DNA of 64,000 bases, from contig CAYMVY010000001.1 in the NCBI GenBank assembly GCA_964394405.1, positions 233,219 through 297,218 of the forward strand, read 5' to 3'. Both the position numbers and the translations under genes were made by a program. The DNA comes from an uncultured Gammaproteobacteria bacterium. GTDB taxonomy: Bacteria; Patescibacteriota; Patescibacteriia; Magasanikbacterales; UBA922. The notes under the pieces were generated by a model. That model was not told the DNA's origin. It saw only the letters and a list, made by a program, of their open reading frames with translations, and did not search any database. This document shows positions 23,646-64,000 of this stretch, piece by piece; the stretch's first letter is position 1, and each line of letters starts with the position of its first letter.

Positions 23646-24356
23646 GTGACTATGCAACCCATCATCCAACACACTCTCTCAATTTACGAAACGATTCTTA
23701 ATCGAATTCCTCCTTTGGTACCGCGAAATATAAAGCAAAGTTTTGAAGTAGAATTGGATCGTCTTCATAGAACAAGAGATATTTCTCTTGATGAAGTGGA
23801 ACAGTCGATGGTAGAGCATGGTAGGAAGCTGTGGCCGTATATCAAAGCATTCGAAGAAATGGTCGCTGTCCATGAAAAAGCGATGGGTAATAAATTTCTT
23901 TTGCAGAAAGCTTCTCCAGGTCTAAGGAAAAAATACGCACTCGTGTGCGAACTCGGCGGAGAGTTTGGGCCCATGTGTTATGGCGCATCACTTGAGCATT
24001 TTGATCATGATGAAAGGCGCGAGTTGAATGAACTTCTTGTAGAATTGAAGCGCGATATACGTACGTTTGCGATGCAGGCAGTCCTGACCCATGATCGAAA
24101 GACGTATGAAGAGAAAATAGAATATTATGGGGGCATGGTTGAGGAAATCAATGCTATTATTGAATCACTACGAACTTTTGCTAGAAATCACGCAGAAAAT
24201 CACAGTAATTTGGCACGCGATGTGGAAAGCAAGATTACAGCGATCGAGCAGAGTTTGGTATTTCTAGGACCACCGATACATATTGAAGAAATCAGGAAAA
24301 CACCAGAATACTATCAAGGCAGACGAGAAGAGAGGAAAGTGCGATGGGGAATATAA
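23646..24356 (+). CDS. hypothetical protein
   Basis: 236-aa ORF, no recognisable motif. Confidence 0.4.
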   Translation: MTMQPIIQHTLSIYETILNRIPPLVPRNIKQSFEVELDRLHRTRDISLDEVEQSMVEHGRKLWPYIKAFEEMVAVHEKAMGNKFLLQKASPGLRKKYALVCELGGEFGPMCYGASLEHFDHDERRELNELLVELKRDIRTFAMQAVLTHDRKTYEEKIEYYGGMVEEINAIIESLRTFARNHAENHSNLARDVESKITAIEQSLVFLGPPIHIEEIRKTPEYYQGRREERKVRWGI

Positions 24357-24387
24357 ATAAAACCCTGTACTAGAAAGGTACAGGGTT

Positions 24388-25191
24388 TTATTTCCAGTTG
24401 AGACTGGTCGGAAGCTCAGAAGGTTTCAACACTGAAGTCTCGAAGTATTTATTTGAAAAAAGTATTGGAAATTGTTTTTGTAGATCTTCTTTGGGTTTTT
24501 CTGATACGAGAATTGCTTGCTCAGCAAAAATTTCAAAATCATCGCCGAGCAATAGAAACATGTCATGGGAAAACTCGGGGAGTGTATGCAGTATTTCATT
24601 GGGCTCATGTGACGTTATTTTATATCTCGGAATGAAAGGTTTGCCACCAACCTGGATTTTGTAACATGCGAGACCTATCGATGAGTGGTAGCCATAGATA
24701 TTTCGGTCATAACCATGGCTGACATGCGAGCAACCAAGAGAAATACTGTGAGAGTAAAAATAAGAGTCTGCGACAAAGCTCACACTAATGGGTATTTTTT
24801 CAGGAATTTCATGAGGAAAAACCTTGTATGCTGAAGCTAAGAAATCATTAGAAGGGGTAATACTAAAAATTATTCCGCCGAGATATTCATCATGTTTATA
24901 CAGCGAGACTACCTGATATCTTTTGCCAGATTTTTCTCCTTCAGCTATTCGTGCACGAACAGGGAATACTGTACCCCGCTCTTTTGAAAGAATGTTTTTT
25001 TCGTATAAGGGGATAAATCTATCGAGATAGTCAGAAGTTACATCCTCGATAATAAATCGGTATCCATATTGGGATAATAGCTGATCTGCCTTTTTAATAC
25101 GTGATGTTGTCTGTTTTCCAAACGCAGAAAATGGGTCATTATTCTGGAGATGGATTCTCCAGCTAATATATCGAGGAAAGGAAATATCCAT
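24388..25191 (-). CDS. hypothetical protein (first gene downstream of the ATP-grasp/PfkB genes)
   Basis: 267-aa ORF co-directional with and 10 nt from the ATP-grasp gene. No confident domain. Confidence 0.4.
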   Translation of the reverse strand: MDISFPRYISWRIHLQNNDPFSAFGKQTTSRIKKADQLLSQYGYRFIIEDVTSDYLDRFIPLYEKNILSKERGTVFPVRARIAEGEKSGKRYQVVSLYKHDEYLGGIIFSITPSNDFLASAYKVFPHEIPEKIPISVSFVADSYFYSHSISLGCSHVSHGYDRNIYGYHSSIGLACYKIQVGGKPFIPRYKITSHEPNEILHTLPEFSHDMFLLLGDDFEIFAEQAILVSEKPKEDLQKQFPILFSNKYFETSVLKPSELPTSLNWK

Positions 25192-30768: not shown

Positions 30769-30885
30769 TATTTAATGGCTGTATTGACACAAAAATAATG
30801 ATATGATATGTTGTGCGACCGTCTTACAGAGAGATCTGTGAGAAGCGGTGAGAAAGGCAAGGGCAACCAATCGTGGAGGACAGAC

Positions 30886-31848
30886 ATGGCTCTGACAATC
30901 AGTTTTAGCGGAATCGAGGGGAGGAAGCAATTCGATGAAACGCAGAATCGAGCGCTCCTGTTCCGCATCTTCGAAGAAGCAGGGTTCTCTGGCGAGTTCG
31001 AGATGCGTCTGCATCGGCAGGTCTCGGCGAGCGGCGGCGGGCATCATCAGGGACTTCAAGGGGTGCAGTTCAACCAGAAGGGTGATCGCACTCTCAAGGT
31101 CTGCGTTCAAGTCGGGGACAGTAGTACCCGGCATGAGCTGCACCTGCCGGTCTCGAGGGAGAAGCTCCAGGAGATGATCCGGAGGCTCAAGGGAGCTCAG
31201 GGGCGTCTCGTCGAGCGCGAGAAGGCAGTGGTGTCGCGTACGAACGGGAAGTCGCGGGAAAGCGTGCTCGATCCGAAGGCTCCAGTGAATGGGACCAAGC
31301 AGAAGCATGATGAAGAAGCTACACTCACGACTATGGGTCAACCTGTGGCTGTGATGGACGAACTGTCGGCGGATGAGCTCAACATGTGTCGCCACATCGT
31401 CGAGGAGGAGGGTGCGAAGATCGAGGAGATCGATCAGAGGCTCAGGGAGACGGAAGATCAGATCTCCAGTCATGAGCATGAGCACATGCGACTCATCCAT
31501 GACCTCAGGGAATCTGCTCTGACAGCAGAAGATCTCGAGCACGAGATTCTCCGACTCGAAGAGAAGCTCAACTCCGCGAAGGAGAAGCTTCTCAGGGTGC
31601 GCGGGAATCAGATCGAGATGGAGCTCGCGGACGCAGAGCATGTCTCTGCGCTCGAAGAACTGCGACGACTGGTCTCTGACCTCAATCAGAAGAGGTCCAA
31701 GGCAGAGGCGAACCGTACCAACGCGGCTGAGGAGGTGTCCAAGGCAGAGGCGCGGGCCGAAGCAGGCCTCCGGGCGCTGCTGCGGATGCTCAGTCCGGAC
31801 CGTCTGGTCCGGATCGTCGCCACACTGGGCGATGGGGCATCCAAGTAG
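30886..31848 (+). CDS. GC-rich coiled-coil protein (compositional outlier, possible horizontally acquired gene)
   Basis: GGAGGA Shine-Dalgarno 6 nt before ATG 30886. 321-aa charged helical protein. Region is visibly GC-rich relative to its neighbours. The antisense ORF 30772-31902 has junk-like L/R-rich composition. Confidence 0.55.
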   Translation: MALTISFSGIEGRKQFDETQNRALLFRIFEEAGFSGEFEMRLHRQVSASGGGHHQGLQGVQFNQKGDRTLKVCVQVGDSSTRHELHLPVSREKLQEMIRRLKGAQGRLVEREKAVVSRTNGKSRESVLDPKAPVNGTKQKHDEEATLTTMGQPVAVMDELSADELNMCRHIVEEEGAKIEEIDQRLRETEDQISSHEHEHMRLIHDLRESALTAEDLEHEILRLEEKLNSAKEKLLRVRGNQIEMELADAEHVSALEELRRLVSDLNQKRSKAEANRTNAAEEVSKAEARAEAGLRALLRMLSPDRLVRIVATLGDGASK

Positions 31849-31938
31849 TGGAGAGGGATTTGGACGGGGGGTGGCACGCGCTGCCTCCCGTCCAAAAAGC
31901 ATACCAATATATTGGTATTTTTTATTTTTAGAACTATT

Positions 31939-31967
31939 TTGACTTTTTGGTTAGATACTTGTATATT
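31939..31967 (+). promoter_or_regulatory. promoter TTGACT-17-TATATT for the ileS leader
   Basis: Read directly. Confidence 0.45.
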
Positions 31968-31974
31968 TAGAACA

Positions 31975-32185
31975 CAATTGTATCAGCGTATTTTCTGCAA
32001 TCAACAGAAATTCTCTATATGAGAAGCGCTAGAGGAAGAAATCCGCGAATAGTGGAAAGTAGAACCTCTCGGGTATGCCCGTAATAGCTGCAAATAAGTG
32101 CTACCAATCGTAGAAGCAGGATGGTACCGTCCCGACTCAGTCGGGATTCCTGCAGATAGGGTAGCTTTTTGTTTTTTTAGTCTCC
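31975..32185 (+). promoter_or_regulatory. candidate T-box-like leader/attenuator upstream of ileS
   Basis: AGGATGGTACCGTC (32118-32131) resembles the T-box AGGGTGGNACCGCG. Nested terminator GCAGGA..CCCGAC-TCAG-GTCGGG..TCCTGC, then CTTTTTGTTTTTTT. About 280-nt leader before ileS ATG 32255. Confidence 0.35.
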
Positions 32186-32254
32186 AATCTTTACTTTTAG
32201 ACTTTTGCCGTGCCTGCCGGCAGGCAGGACTTTACGACTTTTGACTATTTTTAT

Positions 32255-35140
32255 ATGCCGTATAATGCACAAGAACAAGAGCTTGAAATATTGAAACATT
32301 GGGATACAACCGATGCGTTTCGAAAATCTGTAGAAAATCGACCGCTTGATAGACAGTATGTTTTTTATGATGGTCCTCCCTTTGCAACAGGTTTACCTCA
32401 TTACGGACATTTTGGACCTAGTGTGATGAAAGATGCCGTACCTCGCTACTGGACGATGCGGGGGCGACGCGTTGAGCGTGTATGGGGATGGGATTGTCAT
32501 GGGCTTCCGATTGAAAATATTGTTGAAAAAGAACTGGGGATCAAAAGTAAAAAAGAAATTGAAGAAATGGGTGTTGCGGAATTTAACGAAAAATGTCGCG
32601 GAAAAGTTTTGAGCTATGTAGGTGAATGGGAAAAAACGATTCATCGTCTTGGTCGCTGGGTAGATATGAAAAATGCCTATCGCACCATGGATAATAATTA
32701 CATGGAGTCAGTGTGGACCGTATTCAAACAACTTTGGGACAAAGATCTGATTTATCATGGATACAAACCCATGCATATCTGCCCTCGATGTGAGACAACT
32801 TTGTCACAGCAGGAAGTCACTGAAGGATATAAAGATATCAAAGATATTTCGGTAACGGCGAAGTTTAAAGTGAAAAATGCTAAAGAAAAATTAGGAATTG
32901 ATGGTGATGTATTTATTCTTGCATGGACGACAACTCCATGGACATTGCCAGGAAATGTATTACTCGCAGTGGGAAGTGAAATCGAATATTCACTCGTTAA
33001 AAGCGGGGAGGAATATTATATTCTTGCATCAGAATTAGTCGAAGTTAATTGTGAAGAAAAAGAATATGAAGTGGTAAAAAAACTTTCAGCTGATGAATTA
33101 GTCGGTCTCGAGTATGAACCACTATTTCCATACTTTGCAGATAGTAAAAATTCTTTCCGAGTTGTCACTGCGGATTTTGTGACTACTGAAGATGGGACTG
33201 GTGTAGTGCATCTCGCACCTGCATTTGGTACTGATGATTATGAGGTGTTCAAAAAAGAACATGTACCGTTTATTCAACATGTAAAAATGGATGGGACGTT
33301 TATTGATAAAGTGATAGATTTTGCGGGTATGCATGTGAAGCCGGCAGCAGATCATATGGCAACTGATGTGGAAATAGTGAAATGGCTGGCGCACAATGGA
33401 AAATTATTTTCAAAGAAAAAATATGAACACAGCTATCCACATTGTTGGCGTTGTGATACTCCACTCATTAATTATGCGACGAGTAGTTGGTTTGTAAATG
33501 TTACGAAGATCAAAGCAAAAGCATTGAAACAAGCAGAAAAAATCAATTGGTCTCCTGAGCATATTAAGGAAGGAAGATTTGGAAAATGGCTTGAAGGAGC
33601 TCGTGATTGGTCAATCTCACGACAGCGTTTTTGGGCTACGGTAATCCCTGTCTGGCAGAGTGCTGATGGCGATTCAATATGTATTGGCTCTATGAAAGAG
33701 CTTGAAGAATTATCTGGAAAAAAAGTGGATGATTTGCACAAGCATATTGTCGACACCATTACATTTGAAAAAGATGGTAAGACCTATACGCGGGTGCCTG
33801 ACGTACTCGACACCTGGTTTGATTCAGGTTCGATGCCCTATGCAGAAGTACATTATCCATTTGAAAATAAAGAAAAATTCGAAGCAAGTTTCCCCGCAGA
33901 ATTTATTGCGGAATCTCAGGACCAAACTCGCGCGTGGTTTTATTATTTGCATGTACTTGCTGTAAGTTTGTTTGGAAAACCAGCGTATAAAAATGTGATT
34001 GTCAACGGAATTGTGCTTGCAGAAGACGGGAAAAAGATGAGTAAGAAATTACAGAATTATCCAGATCCTAATACACTTCTTGAAAAATATGGAGCAGATG
34101 CACTTCGTTACTATTTGTTAACATCTCCAGTCATGATGGCAGAGAATCTGAACTTCTCAGAAGCAGGAGTGCGAGAAATGTATAATAAACTCGTGAATAC
34201 ATTGTGGAATGTATGTGAGTTTTATGAACTCTTTGCAGAGAAAGGTAAAAGCAAAAACGTAAAAGTAAAAAGAGAGAATATTTTAGATCGCTGGATTATA
34301 ACAAAGTTGAATATATTGGTTAAAGAAGTCACTGAGGGGATGGAAGCGTACAAACTTGCTGAGGCGAGTCGTCCGATTGTGGAATTTGTGACTGAATTAT
34401 CGCAGTGGTACGTACGACGTAGTCGCGATCGTTTCAAAGGTGATGATGCGAGTGATAAAGAAGCTGCGCTTCAGACACTTCAGACTGTGCTTCTAACTCT
34501 TTCAAAAGTCATGGCACCATTCACTCCATTTATTGCAGAAACACTGTATCAGAAAGTAGGAGGAGAGATGGAGAGTGTGCACCTCGAAGATTTTCCCGTG
34601 TATAATAAAAAAGAAGTTGATGGGGGTGTACTTGAAGAAATGACACATGTACGAAAAGTGGTGGAAATGGGTCTTGCACTTCGTGCGTCAGCTGGGATAA
34701 AAGTACGCCAGATATTATCAAAACTATATTTCAGTGGCGTCACACTTTCAGATGCGGCCAAGGAAATCGTCGCAGATGAAATGAACGTAAAAAAAGTTGT
34801 AGAAGAAATGCCCGGAACATCTGAGTTCATTACTCTGAAAGAAGACGGAAGCGTAACAGTTGGTCTAGATACTCAAATGACAGATGAATTGAAAAAAGAA
34901 GGATTGGTTCGAGAAATCATTCGCGCAGTGAATCAGATGAGAAAAGAGCAGGGGCTTACGGTGGAGGATATGGTTACACTGTATTGGCATACCGAAGATA
35001 CACAATTACAGTCAGTGTTTGAAAATTATGGAAAAGAAATTGCAACTGGAGTATTAGCCTATGAAATGGTAGAAAAGAACAATGAGGGTAAGTTAGAAAT
35101 TGAAGGAGTTACATTATCATTAACTATTGAAAAGAAATAA
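32255..35140 (+). CDS. ileS: isoleucyl-tRNA synthetase (type with KMSKK, no C-terminal Zn finger)
   Basis: HIGH-type PHYGH motif, KMSKKLQNYPDP, CP1 editing domain. 961 aa from Met 32255. Confidence 0.9.
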   Translation: MPYNAQEQELEILKHWDTTDAFRKSVENRPLDRQYVFYDGPPFATGLPHYGHFGPSVMKDAVPRYWTMRGRRVERVWGWDCHGLPIENIVEKELGIKSKKEIEEMGVAEFNEKCRGKVLSYVGEWEKTIHRLGRWVDMKNAYRTMDNNYMESVWTVFKQLWDKDLIYHGYKPMHICPRCETTLSQQEVTEGYKDIKDISVTAKFKVKNAKEKLGIDGDVFILAWTTTPWTLPGNVLLAVGSEIEYSLVKSGEEYYILASELVEVNCEEKEYEVVKKLSADELVGLEYEPLFPYFADSKNSFRVVTADFVTTEDGTGVVHLAPAFGTDDYEVFKKEHVPFIQHVKMDGTFIDKVIDFAGMHVKPAADHMATDVEIVKWLAHNGKLFSKKKYEHSYPHCWRCDTPLINYATSSWFVNVTKIKAKALKQAEKINWSPEHIKEGRFGKWLEGARDWSISRQRFWATVIPVWQSADGDSICIGSMKELEELSGKKVDDLHKHIVDTITFEKDGKTYTRVPDVLDTWFDSGSMPYAEVHYPFENKEKFEASFPAEFIAESQDQTRAWFYYLHVLAVSLFGKPAYKNVIVNGIVLAEDGKKMSKKLQNYPDPNTLLEKYGADALRYYLLTSPVMMAENLNFSEAGVREMYNKLVNTLWNVCEFYELFAEKGKSKNVKVKRENILDRWIITKLNILVKEVTEGMEAYKLAEASRPIVEFVTELSQWYVRRSRDRFKGDDASDKEAALQTLQTVLLTLSKVMAPFTPFIAETLYQKVGGEMESVHLEDFPVYNKKEVDGGVLEEMTHVRKVVEMGLALRASAGIKVRQILSKLYFSGVTLSDAAKEIVADEMNVKKVVEEMPGTSEFITLKEDGSVTVGLDTQMTDELKKEGLVREIIRAVNQMRKEQGLTVEDMVTLYWHTEDTQLQSVFENYGKEIATGVLAYEMVEKNNEGKLEIEGVTLSLTIEKK

Positions 35141-49180: not shown

Positions 49181-49209
49181 TTGACCGCAAATCGTATTTT
49201 CAGTATAGT
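49181..49209 (+). promoter_or_regulatory. promoter TTGACC-17-TATAGT for the thrS leader
   Basis: Read directly, immediately after the stop of the upstream gene. Confidence 0.5.
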
Positions 49210-49215
49210 TTCTCT

Positions 49216-49395
49216 ACTAAAGCGCAATTACGAGAACCTGCCCAGCTCCGACGTTACGTCGGAGCATGGTACCACTCTCGGAGCTTTATACAAATTTGAA
49301 AAAGGTAAATAACGGGTGGAACCGTCCTGACATAACAGTCTAGACCCCGGCGCTATCGAGAGTGAAGTCTCAGGTGCTGGGGTTTTTGTTTAAGT
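49216..49395 (+). promoter_or_regulatory. candidate T-box-like leader upstream of thrS
   Basis: AACGGGTGGAACCGTCC (49311-49327) matches the T-box core GGGTGGNACCG. Terminator CCCCGGCGC..GTGCTGGGG + TTTTTGTTT at 49343-49391. ACC threonine codon present in the upstream hairpin region. Confidence 0.4.
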
Positions 49396-49473: not shown

Positions 49474-51219
49474 ATGGAAAAAGAACAACTTGAACATCTA
49501 CGCCATTCCGCTGCACATCTACTTGCTGCAGCAGTGGAAGAATTATACCCACATGCAAAGCGAACGATTGGTCCGGCTATTGAGGATGGGTTTTATTATG
49601 ATTTCGACTTTGGGGTTGAAAAAATTAATGATGAAGATTTGAAGAAAATTGAGAAGCGAATGGGTGAAATCGTCAAACATTGGAAAGAGTTTGAACACCG
49701 AGAAGTGACTGCTGACGAAGCAAAAGAGTTTTTCAAAGACAATGAATATAAGAAAGAATTGATTGAGGAATTCGCAGGCGAGGGCGCAACACTTACGTTC
49801 TATACTGCAGGAAAATTTACTGACTTATGTCGTGGTGGACATAGTGAGAATCCTTCAAAAGAACTCCGCAATTTCAAATTGTTGAGTGTGGCAGGAGCAT
49901 ACTGGAGAGGGGATGAAAAAAATAAAATGTTGACTCGAATTTATGGCACTGCATTTCCTACCAAGGATGAATTGCAGAAATATCTGGAAATGCGAGAAGA
50001 AGCAAAGAAGCGAGATCATCGAAAAATCGGTAAAGACCAGGAATTATTCCTGATTGATGATCGAGTAGGAAAAGGTCTTGTGATGTGGCTCCCAAATGGA
50101 ACCATAATTCGAAATGAGATTGAAAAATTTGCGACTGAAATGGAAGAAGCATATGACTATCAGAGAGTAGTCACCCCGCATATGGCAAAGGAGGATCTGT
50201 ACCTCACTTCAGGACACCTGCCATACTATAAAGAAGGAATGTACCCTGCAATGGTCATGGATGATGGCACCTACTATCTCCGCGCCATGAATTGCCCCCA
50301 TCACCATATCATCTATGGATCAAGTCCTCGCAGTTATCGTGAACTTCCACTTCGACTTGCTGAATATGGCACGGTGTATCGCAATGAATTGTCAGGAACC
50401 CTTGCAGGCCTGCTTCGCGTACGCGGACTTACCATGAATGACGCGCATATCTACTGTACCAAAGAGCAGATCAAAGATGAGTTCAAACGAGTGATGGAAT
50501 TAACCATGAATTATTTCAAGACGTTTGGACTTGAAAATTACTGGTTCCGCCTTTCAAAATGGAGTCCGGAACACAAAGACAAATATATTGATCAACCAGA
50601 AAATTGGGAAATGGCTGAGGCTGTGCTCCGCGATGTATTGACTGAGATGCATGTAACATTTGTGGAGGCTGAAGACGAGGCTGCCTTCTACGGACCAAAA
50701 GTGGATGTACAGTTCAAATCAGTAATAGGTCGCGAGGAAACCATGTCGACCATACAACTCGACTTCCTTGCACGCGAGAGATTCAAATTGAACTATATTG
50801 ATGAAGAAGGAAAAGAAAATAACCAAGTATTTGTCATTCATCGGGCACCTCTGTCGACCCACGAGAGGTTCACTGCATTCCTCATTGAGCATTATGCCGG
50901 AATCTGGCCTACCTGGCTCTCTCCGGTCGCTGTAGCGCTCGTACCAGTGTCTGAGAAGCATGTCGTGGGAGCTGAATCACTTGCGAGAGAATTTCGGGCA
51001 GAGGGAATCAGAGTATCTATTGATAGAGCTGACGAAACAGTAGGGAAGAAAATCAGAAAAGCTGCTCAGAGCAAGGTTCCGTATATGCTGGTCATTGGTG
51101 ACAAAGAACTCGAAGGTGGGGATTTCATGGTCCGTATGCGAGGGGTTGAAGAACAGGTGAGTATTTCAAAGAGTGAGTTTGTCGCGAAGGTGAAGGCTGA
51201 AATTAGAGAGAGGAAGTAA
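49474..51219 (+). CDS. thrS: threonyl-tRNA synthetase (no N-terminal TGS domain)
   Basis: HxxxH editing-domain motif HSAAHLL, class II motifs, zinc site RAMNCPHH, C-terminal anticodon-binding domain. Confidence 0.85.
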   Translation: MEKEQLEHLRHSAAHLLAAAVEELYPHAKRTIGPAIEDGFYYDFDFGVEKINDEDLKKIEKRMGEIVKHWKEFEHREVTADEAKEFFKDNEYKKELIEEFAGEGATLTFYTAGKFTDLCRGGHSENPSKELRNFKLLSVAGAYWRGDEKNKMLTRIYGTAFPTKDELQKYLEMREEAKKRDHRKIGKDQELFLIDDRVGKGLVMWLPNGTIIRNEIEKFATEMEEAYDYQRVVTPHMAKEDLYLTSGHLPYYKEGMYPAMVMDDGTYYLRAMNCPHHHIIYGSSPRSYRELPLRLAEYGTVYRNELSGTLAGLLRVRGLTMNDAHIYCTKEQIKDEFKRVMELTMNYFKTFGLENYWFRLSKWSPEHKDKYIDQPENWEMAEAVLRDVLTEMHVTFVEAEDEAAFYGPKVDVQFKSVIGREETMSTIQLDFLARERFKLNYIDEEGKENNQVFVIHRAPLSTHERFTAFLIEHYAGIWPTWLSPVAVALVPVSEKHVVGAESLAREFRAEGIRVSIDRADETVGKKIRKAAQSKVPYMLVIGDKELEGGDFMVRMRGVEEQVSISKSEFVAKVKAEIRERK

Positions 51220-63674: not shown

Positions 63675-63707
63675 ATAAAAAAAGCCCTCCGAAGAGGGCT
63701 TTTTTTA
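63675..63707. terminator. bidirectional terminator AAGCCCTC-cgaa-GAGGGCTT flanked by A7/T7
   Basis: Perfect 8-bp stem downstream of cspA. Confidence 0.65.
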
Positions 63708-63717
63708 TTCTCACGTA

Positions 63718-63915
63718 TTAAACGCGAGAAACGTTTACTGCAGCTGGACCTTTTTCACCATCAACTACTTCAAAAGTGACGGTATCGCCAACTTTTAATT
63801 CGTCGTATGAAACACCAACCAATGACTTTGAATGAAAGAAGAGATCTTTTGACTCACCTTCGCGAGCAATAAATCCGAATCCTTTATCAGTAAGAGTCTT
63901 GATAGTACCTGTCAT
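63718..63915 (-). CDS. cspA: cold-shock protein
   Basis: GTIKTLTDKGFGFIAREGESKDLFFH RNP motifs. 65 aa. Confidence 0.9.
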   Translation of the reverse strand: MTGTIKTLTDKGFGFIAREGESKDLFFHSKSLVGVSYDELKVGDTVTFEVVDGEKGPAAVNVSRV

Positions 63916-64000
63916 AATATTGTTTTTATGAGCTTAGTTAGACCGAGAAACTCGACTACGTTTTTCGTATGTGGTTAGACATAATGAGGACTATACACTA

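Follow-up and report, generated by a model that had tools for sequence, protein, structure and literature searches.

A predicted T-box attenuator with an ultrashort Stem I upstream of ileS in a Patescibacteria genome

We analysed a 64,000-nucleotide stretch of DNA (hereafter the window; positions 233,219 to 297,218 of contig CAYMVY010000001.1, assembly GCA_964394405.1) from an organism deposited as an uncultured Gammaproteobacteria bacterium and placed by GTDB in the Patescibacteriota (Magasanikbacterales, UBA922), within the candidate phyla radiation (CPR). The window holds ileS, the gene for isoleucyl-tRNA synthetase (IleRS), preceded by a promoter and a structured leader. Judged from its sequence, predicted folds and comparison with related loci, this leader is probably a T-box, an RNA element that would respond to tRNA-Ile and attenuate ileS transcription, a reading to which we give a probability of about 0.8. 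The features of the locus, all on the plus strand, are these:

31939-31967, +: sigma-70-type promoter (TTGACT 31939-44, 17 nt, TATATT 31962-67)
31985-32030, +: Stem I of the ultrashort type, with base helix AGCG/CGCU (31985-88/32027-30), from the minimum free energy (MFE) fold
31992-97/32005-10, +: specifier hairpin within Stem I, with the 7-nt loop CAAUCAA (31998-32004)
32000-32002, +: specifier codon AUC (Ile) in the terminal loop, followed by the conserved purine A32003
32011-25, +: extra, lineage-specific hairpin within Stem I
32031-32069, +: Stem II, with proximal helix 32031-35/32065-69 and distal helix 32042-46/32052-56
32036-41 and 32057-64, +: Stem II S-turn strands AAGAAA and AAGUAGAA
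32070-32088, +: Stem IIA with an F-box-like CCCGUAAUAGC; the IIA helix (32070-73/32078-81) is conserved
G32077-C32088 and C32078-G32087, +: two-base-pair IIB pseudoknot
32096-32115, +: discriminator latch, made of the purine string AAGUG (32096-100), Stem III and AA (32114-15)
32101-13, +: Stem III, CUAC-CAAUC-GUAG (helix 32101-04/32110-13)
32116-32153, +: T-box hairpin (antiterminator homologue), with A1 32116-21/32148-53, bulge UGGUACC 32122-28 and loop UCA
32129-36/32140-47, +: A2, with terminal wobble G32129-U32147
32155-32165, +: 3' strand GAUAGGGUAGC of the terminator base helix, paired in the MFE fold with 32100-05 and 32107-09
32166-32178, +: U-tract UUUUUGUUUUUUU of the intrinsic terminator, read from the sequence
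32179-32254, +: spacer between terminator and start codon, not conserved and not alignable with the closest relative, L001 (contig CAYUTO010000003.1)
32255-35140, +: ileS, a type-2 (eukaryote-like) IleRS of 961 aa with the Pfam domains tRNA-synt_1, Anticodon_1 and DUF5915

The promoter, already proposed in an initial annotation of this DNA, matches the consensus at 10 of 12 positions, and L001 keeps both hexamers and their spacing. TTGACA-like promoters also stand ahead of other CPR ileS leaders. Transcription is expected to start at about 31974-76, and the untranslated leader has the length of about 280 nt that the same annotation had given it, ending at the ileS ATG at 32255; within it, the T-box element would span approximately 31975-32178. 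Top matches of the ileS product in PDB are IleRS2 and cytoplasmic IleRS.

Related ileS loci were retrieved via IleRS and comprised 80 genome loci and 80 metagenome loci; they show the organism to be one of the Patescibacteria, close to Magasanikbacteria. A scan with the motif [AG]GNUGGNACC placed it upstream of ileS in 16 of the 80 CPR genome loci, and the leaders bearing it share an NNAUCAN hairpin loop, GAAGAAA and AGUAGA strands, CGGG...CCCGUAA, AAUNAAG, and a T-box hairpin followed by a U-run. A covariance model (R1) was built on 10 core sequences, aligned after removal of lineage-specific inserts. It matched 22 of the genome loci and 15 of the metagenome loci (37 leaders in total) with E-values of 1e-9 to 1e-31, those for seed members being high by construction. 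R1-positive loci include Magasanikbacteria, Moraniibacteriota, Peregrinibacteria and Saccharibacteria, while no match was obtained in Spirochaete ileS loci. Base pairing is kept in 97% of cells in the seed, with compensatory changes in 24 of 30 pairs, and in 95.6% of cells across the 37 leaders, with compensatory changes in 28 of the 30 modelled pairs; the covariation among orthologous ileS leaders that the initial annotation had named as a check is thus present. Sliding the partner by 1-3 columns reduced pairing in the 37 leaders to 31-54%. Pair counts in A1 and A2 lean towards structure because their seed columns were picked by complementarity. In several leaders with a long Stem III (L032, L034, L061, L075, L079, L140, L144 and others), R1 misaligns the 3' domain, its match stopping short of the true T-box. 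MAFFT with RNAalifold, applied to unedited leaders, retrieved Stem I, Stem II and IIA, with the antiterminator misaligned. Between the window and L001, whose IleRS sequences are 87% identical, the leader is about 90% conserved, and compensatory changes are found in A1, A2 and distal Stem II, four of the six A1 pairs being doubly substituted. The retained tRNA-binding features and the compensated helices indicate purifying selection on those features.

The decoding half of the element is compact. In the MFE fold, the Stem I hairpin has at most 6 bp and a 7-nt loop, and among the 37 sequences compensatory changes occur in 3/3 pairs of the base helix and 4/4 pairs of the hairpin. AUC-A is invariant in the 10-sequence seed and lies in the hairpin loop of each of the 33 leaders (of 37) whose alignment reaches far enough 5' to include Stem I, and this Ile codon with its following purine precedes a gene that encodes IleRS. 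The initial annotation had placed the specifier at an AUC in GAAGAAAUCCGCG (32041-43); that codon exists, but within the Stem II S-turn motif GAAGAAAU, and the specifier is instead the AUC at 32000-32002. Known T-boxes of the ultrashort class have their Specifier Sequence within a short helix's terminal loop and reportedly all regulate ileS (bioRxiv 10.1101/2023.02.28.530422; TBDB preprint; Mycobacterium tuberculosis ileS, PMC11297988), and both properties are seen here.

Stem II, its S-turn, and Stem IIA/B with an F-box (CCCGUAA) follow. All nine Stem II pairs show compensatory changes, with 92-98% of cells paired in the 37 leaders; the GAAGAAA and AGUAGA strands are near-invariant, and the Rfam alignment puts the S-turn strands on Stem II. 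The two IIB pairs are formed in 10/10 seed sequences and show one double compensatory change (in L061). A 3-bp pseudoknot of the IIB kind is found in the M. tuberculosis ileS T-box (PMC11297988).

The sensing half consists of the latch and the T-box hairpin. The sequence AGGAUGGUACCGUC with its UGGU bulge is present at 32118-32131, as first noted, and forms part of an A1, 7-nt bulge (UGGN ACC) and A2 arrangement in which all 10 modelled pairs covary across the 37 sequences. The UGGUACC bulge is near-invariant among leaders, and Rfam aligns this region to the T-box/antiterminator. A 5'-RRRxG-Stem III-AA-3' latch and a G-U sensor pair in A2, both described for T-box discriminators (PMC7583486), occur together in the window, although G-U closes A2 in only three of the 10 seed sequences. 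Stem III and its purines are reported to be indispensable for binding the tRNA 3' end (PMC7583486), and Stem III reportedly stacks on the antiterminator (bioRxiv 10.1101/2023.02.28.530422). The UGGU bulge predicts A73 in the cognate tRNA-Ile. A73 is usual for bacterial tRNA-Ile. Bulge variants were seen in three relatives, namely UGGAACC (L078, 2902), UGGUAAC (L151, 292) and UGGUUUC (L114, 229), the first of them, from a Saccharibacteria metagenome-assembled genome (MAG), predicting a U73 tRNA-Ile. As a separate observation, ACCA occurs at 32103-32106 in Stem III, and CACCA in the linkers of L002, L093 and L082. This matches the tRNA A73-CCA end and is complementary to the UGGU bulge; it may be a mimic in cis or may have arisen by chance.

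The expression platform departs from the expected layout. The initial annotation had read the helices GCAGGA/UCCUGC and GUCCCGAC/GUCGGGAU, with the U-run at 32166-32178, as a nested intrinsic terminator. Both helices and the U-run exist, but the helices are antiterminator A1 and A2 flanking the UGGUACC bulge, with an inner loop of UCA rather than UCAG (one G had been counted twice), and they end 12 nt before the U-run, so that by themselves they are no intrinsic terminator; a third, outer helix carries the stem to the U-run. This base helix pairs 32100-05 with 32160-65 and 32107-09 with 32155-57; opposite its 3' strand lie the G at the end of the purine string and the 5' strand and loop of Stem III. 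The resulting MFE structure is a three-tier hairpin abutting the U-run. A scan for the consensus terminator pattern found none at the leader because the stem is three-tiered.

Two mutually exclusive pairings are therefore available to 32100-09: Stem III, or the base helix with 32155-65. Nascent RNA to 32154 folds as Stem III plus the T-box hairpin, and the terminator fold has an energy of -29.7 kcal/mol, compared with -23.5 kcal/mol for the alternative that has Stem III and an unpaired 3' strand. Pairing of this strand with the Stem III region gives a duplex of -12.4 kcal/mol (z = -2.8 versus shuffles).

Platforms of 36 parsed CPR leaders were classed by the pairing partner of the last helix before the U-run, which follows the platform in 36/36:

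21 of 36 leaders: enclosing platform, in which the strand before the U-run is paired with the Stem III or linker region; the MFE fold of 16 of these preserves A1, A2 and the bulge
10 of 36 leaders, e.g. L032, L034, L076 and L140: canonical platform, in which the A1/A2 3' strands are the 5' strand of the terminator
5 of 36 leaders: independent platform, with a terminator hairpin that overlaps nothing

The sequences that make up the enclosing helices are unrelated between lineages. Of the nucleotides that form Stem III in the nascent fold, 4-11 switch to pairing with the strand before the U-run, in the window as in nine relatives. Five leaders (L005, L007, L085, L090 and L091) have no Stem III; there, the terminator hairpin abuts A1 without overlap and shows no complementarity to the linker.

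A canonical switch, in which A2 and A1 give up their 3' strands to pairing with downstream sequence in a terminator, as in Firmicutes, would be the textbook expectation. Such a layout is present in those 10 of 36 CPR ileS leaders, and even in L001 the pairing of the A1/A2 3' strand with the strand before the U-run beats chance (z = -2.0). The window leader itself gives little room for it. Its A1/A2 3' strands with 32154-66 yield only -4.7 kcal/mol (z = +0.2), the MFE and constrained folds keep 6/6 A1 pairs and leave 7/7 bulge nucleotides unpaired, and the T-box hairpin by itself folds at -19.7 kcal/mol, compared with the -7.4 +/- 4.2 kcal/mol reported for antiterminators (TBDB preprint). On the strength of the duplex z-score, the A1/A2 strand-swap terminator was rejected for the window, and we regard the canonical switch as unlikely there. 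The mutually exclusive pairing anticipated by the initial annotation is consequently absent in its canonical form, which taken formally speaks against a T-box, but is found between Stem III and the terminator base helix.

Control of translation, with the element hiding and exposing a ribosome-binding site as in actinobacterial ultrashort ileS T-boxes, has precedent in its favour: all T-boxes with an ultrashort Stem I reported so far are said to be translational (bioRxiv 10.1101/2023.02.28.530422), and in L002, L005 and L007 the U-run ends just 15-25 nt before the ATG. The window platform, however, ends 76 nt before the ATG, and the intervening spacer (32179-32254) is unconserved and contains no Shine-Dalgarno sequence. 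In the Saccharibacteria relatives a Shine-Dalgarno sequence lies downstream of the U-run, and a helix followed by a U-run is found in every parsed leader. Translational control is therefore very improbable as an account of this element, and transcription attenuation is preferred.

From the architecture, conservation, covariation and alternative pairings described above, we infer tRNA binding, the direction of regulation and a Stem III swap along the following lines. The GAU anticodon of uncharged tRNA-Ile would pair with AUC, and its ACCA-3' end with the bulge UGGU. Stem III and the purines would then latch onto this heteroduplex, as in solved T-box complexes. Latched Stem III would block invasion by 32155-65, leaving the U-tract without an adjacent stem, and polymerase would read into ileS. 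If uncharged tRNA were lacking (charged tRNA could not latch), 32155-65 would invade Stem III and pair with 32100-09, and the base helix would extend the T-box hairpin to a three-tier stem at the U-tract, causing termination. In this scheme the A1/bulge/A2 hairpin would be very stable and present in both states, unlike in the textbook platform. For the Stem III swap as such, we consider the odds evenly balanced.

A number of observations weigh against this interpretation. The window leader scores 23.8 bits with RF00230 against a gathering score of 93 (E = 0.0025 in a 501-nt search), and at the scale of the whole window the T-box match has E = 0.32. Transcriptional T-boxes are generally said to need a long Stem I with an elbow-binding platform (PMC7583486), and a Stem I of that length, with a distal platform of interdigitated T-loops, is seen neither in the MFE fold nor in the Rfam alignment of the window leader. 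Its Stem I is a three-way junction in place of the K-turn (GA motif) of many relatives. Stem III is short, with 4 bp and -2.3 kcal/mol; nine of the 21 enclosing platforms lack a Stem III hairpin, the linker itself being captured; and the five overlap-free terminators mean that no single switching rule holds throughout. Platform classes show no difference in the stability of the T-box hairpin (p = 0.18), where enclosing platforms were expected to have the more stable hairpins. Finally, neither the window nor the scanned loci yielded a tRNA-Ile gene against which A73 and the GAU anticodon could be checked.

The weak Rfam score might suggest a chance resemblance, i.e. an unrelated structured 5' untranslated region that happens to contain GGAUGGUACC. 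The motif alone would allow it: RGNTGGNACCG occurs twice in the window versus 0.4 expected, and is not by itself beyond chance because 7 of 100 shuffles reach two. At the gathering threshold, the Rfam search of the window yields only two tRNAs and no T-box, and none of 16 related CPR leaders reaches that threshold either. The best relative, L044, obtains 30.9 bits with RF00230, in an alignment from which Stem III and 78 positions of distal Stem I are deleted. The RF00230 scan proposed with the initial annotation thus fell short of the threshold, yet it returned RF00230 as the best family in a permissive search of 31850-32350, with a full-length alignment (31953-32154) that covers the whole model and keeps its domain order. 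Rfam points to a T-box and cannot establish one by itself. The full multi-domain architecture and the covariation in 37 orthologous leaders effectively refute chance resemblance, whose probability we regard as negligible.

A decayed, non-switching relic, which would act as a constitutive attenuator or RNA-stability element with no response to tRNA, could be read from the lost K-turn of the window, its hyper-stable T-box hairpin and the fact that no canonical competition can be drawn. It is hard to reconcile with the retention of AUC-A, the UGGUACC bulge, both S-turn strands, the F-box and the RRRxG...AA purines, or with compensatory changes that maintain helices even between the window and L001, and we see only a slight chance that it applies. 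The central proposal of the initial annotation, a T-box-type, tRNA-Ile-sensing attenuation leader before ileS in a CPR bacterium, is upheld by the 37 covarying leaders, the Rfam top match and the IleRS gene.

A second T-box-like leader, found via a motif match at 49314, precedes thrS in the same window:

49181-49392: T-box-like thrS leader, with a TTGACC/TATAGT promoter
49474-51219: thrS, threonyl-tRNA synthetase

Stem I of the thrS leader is short and contains a conserved AUGGUACCA (Thr codon ACC, then A). The leader lacks both Stem II and the F-box, and carries a T-box of the form CGGG-UGGAACC-A2-CCCG, whose UGGA predicts U73 in tRNA-Thr. Its canonical terminator, CCCCGGCGC...GGUGCUGGGG with a U-run, overlaps the 3' strand of A1. 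The fold has an MFE z-score of -4.1, and the leader is conserved with covarying terminators in five of eight thrS leaders of relatives (L161-L164 and L167). RF00230 gives no match on it even at E <= 10.

Considering both leaders, we tentatively propose, at slightly less than even odds, that the CPR has an undescribed class of T-box that would combine an ultrashort Stem I with transcription attenuation. Most members would have a constitutive T-box hairpin, with termination set by downstream-strand capture of the Stem III/purine latch otherwise held by uncharged tRNA. Together with the Stem II-less thrS T-box, these would form regulons native to Patescibacteria, fitting a Terrabacteria-wide, ileS-first origin.

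Several further observations concern the surroundings of the leader. Upstream, on the plus strand, lies a 346-aa open reading frame (ORF; 30808-31848) with a coiled-coil-like C-terminus and no Pfam match, in a GC-rich island (55-68% versus ~41%) at approximately 30850-31895. It sits between a CBS-domain gene and the ileS promoter, and is followed by a GC hairpin (31864-95) and then an AT hairpin with a T-run (31901-32). Because L001 lacks this ORF and has the CBS-domain gene directly before the ileS leader, sequence comparison identifies it as an insertion of ~1.1 kb relative to L001, probably acquired horizontally. The spacer downstream of the terminator contains a perfect 16-nt palindrome, UGCCUGCCGGCAGGCA (32211-26). 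Tested as a repeat, it is present in a single copy in the window, and outside the window the 16-mer is found in only 1 of 160 loci: a near-identical CCUGCCGGUAGGCAGG lies at 2757-2772 of L012, inside sequence inserted into Stem II of a CPR ileS leader unrelated to this one. The spacer folds ordinarily (z = -1.1). Elsewhere in the window, Rfam gives sub-threshold matches that are Thr_leader-like at 24300-24421 (both strands), where a bidirectional terminator is the probable source, and cspA-thermoregulator-like at 63675-63947 on the minus strand (29.5 bits versus 78).

Among the related loci, L028, L077, L076, L072 and L009 have 0.7-1.4 kb between an upstream ileS-type T-box and ileS, a gap occupied by one or two unrelated ORFs (one HD-domain-like, one membrane-protein-like and one four-helix-bundle-like), and the T-box in these cases may control small operons. 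Many third-party annotation (TPA) MAG records titled 'uncultured Gammaproteobacteria bacterium' (L001, L003-L005, L007 and others) have IleRS sequences and leaders that group with Patescibacteria, and these titles look mislabelled.

The literature searched, itself incomplete, held no paper linking T-boxes with CPR, Patescibacteria, Saccharibacteria or Parcubacteria. The leaders described here would place T-box regulation in the CPR, where standard Rfam-based annotation is blind to them. They would also contradict the working rule by which an elbow-binding, long Stem I is required in transcriptional T-boxes, and an ultrashort Stem I means translational control. As natural tRNA-sensing modules they would be compact, at ~190 nt in the window and ~140 nt in relatives. 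A CPR T-box could further serve as a character in the debate on the position of the CPR relative to Chloroflexi, Actinobacteria and Firmicutes, because ileS is the T-box-regulated gene common to those three phyla.

Among known systems, the window leader resembles the ultrashort ileS T-boxes of Actinobacteria (M. tuberculosis, M. smegmatis and Nocardia farcinica) in its position upstream of ileS, its AUC in a terminal loop and its lack of an elbow platform. It shares with that class the Stem II S-turn, the Stem IIA/B short pseudoknot and F-box, Stem III, the T-box bulge and the A1/A2 discriminator. It differs in its host, a member of the Patescibacteria rather than the Actinobacteria; in its Stem I, a three-way junction with an extra hairpin rather than a K-turn; and in its platform, a hairpin and U-tract 76 nt before the ATG rather than an antisequestrator/sequestrator over the Shine-Dalgarno sequence. 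With the transcriptional T-boxes of Firmicutes (RF00230; Bacillus subtilis tyrS and glyQS) it has in common a predicted tRNA-directed attenuation with an intrinsic terminator, the T-box AGGNUGGNACCG with its 7-nt bulge, the Stem II and IIA/B domains, the RRRxG-Stem III-AA latch and the A2 G-U wobble. It departs from them in lacking a long Stem I and with it the AG bulge, distal loop and platform, in scoring far below the family threshold (23.8 versus 93 bits), and in a terminator that encloses the intact T-box hairpin via the Stem III region instead of using the A1/A2 3' strands. The element thus carries most of the defining T-box features; it stays below the Rfam threshold, has no long Stem I and lacks the canonical overlap with its terminator. 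The T-box kind itself is known; what appears new is a transcriptional T-box with an ultrashort Stem I in the CPR.

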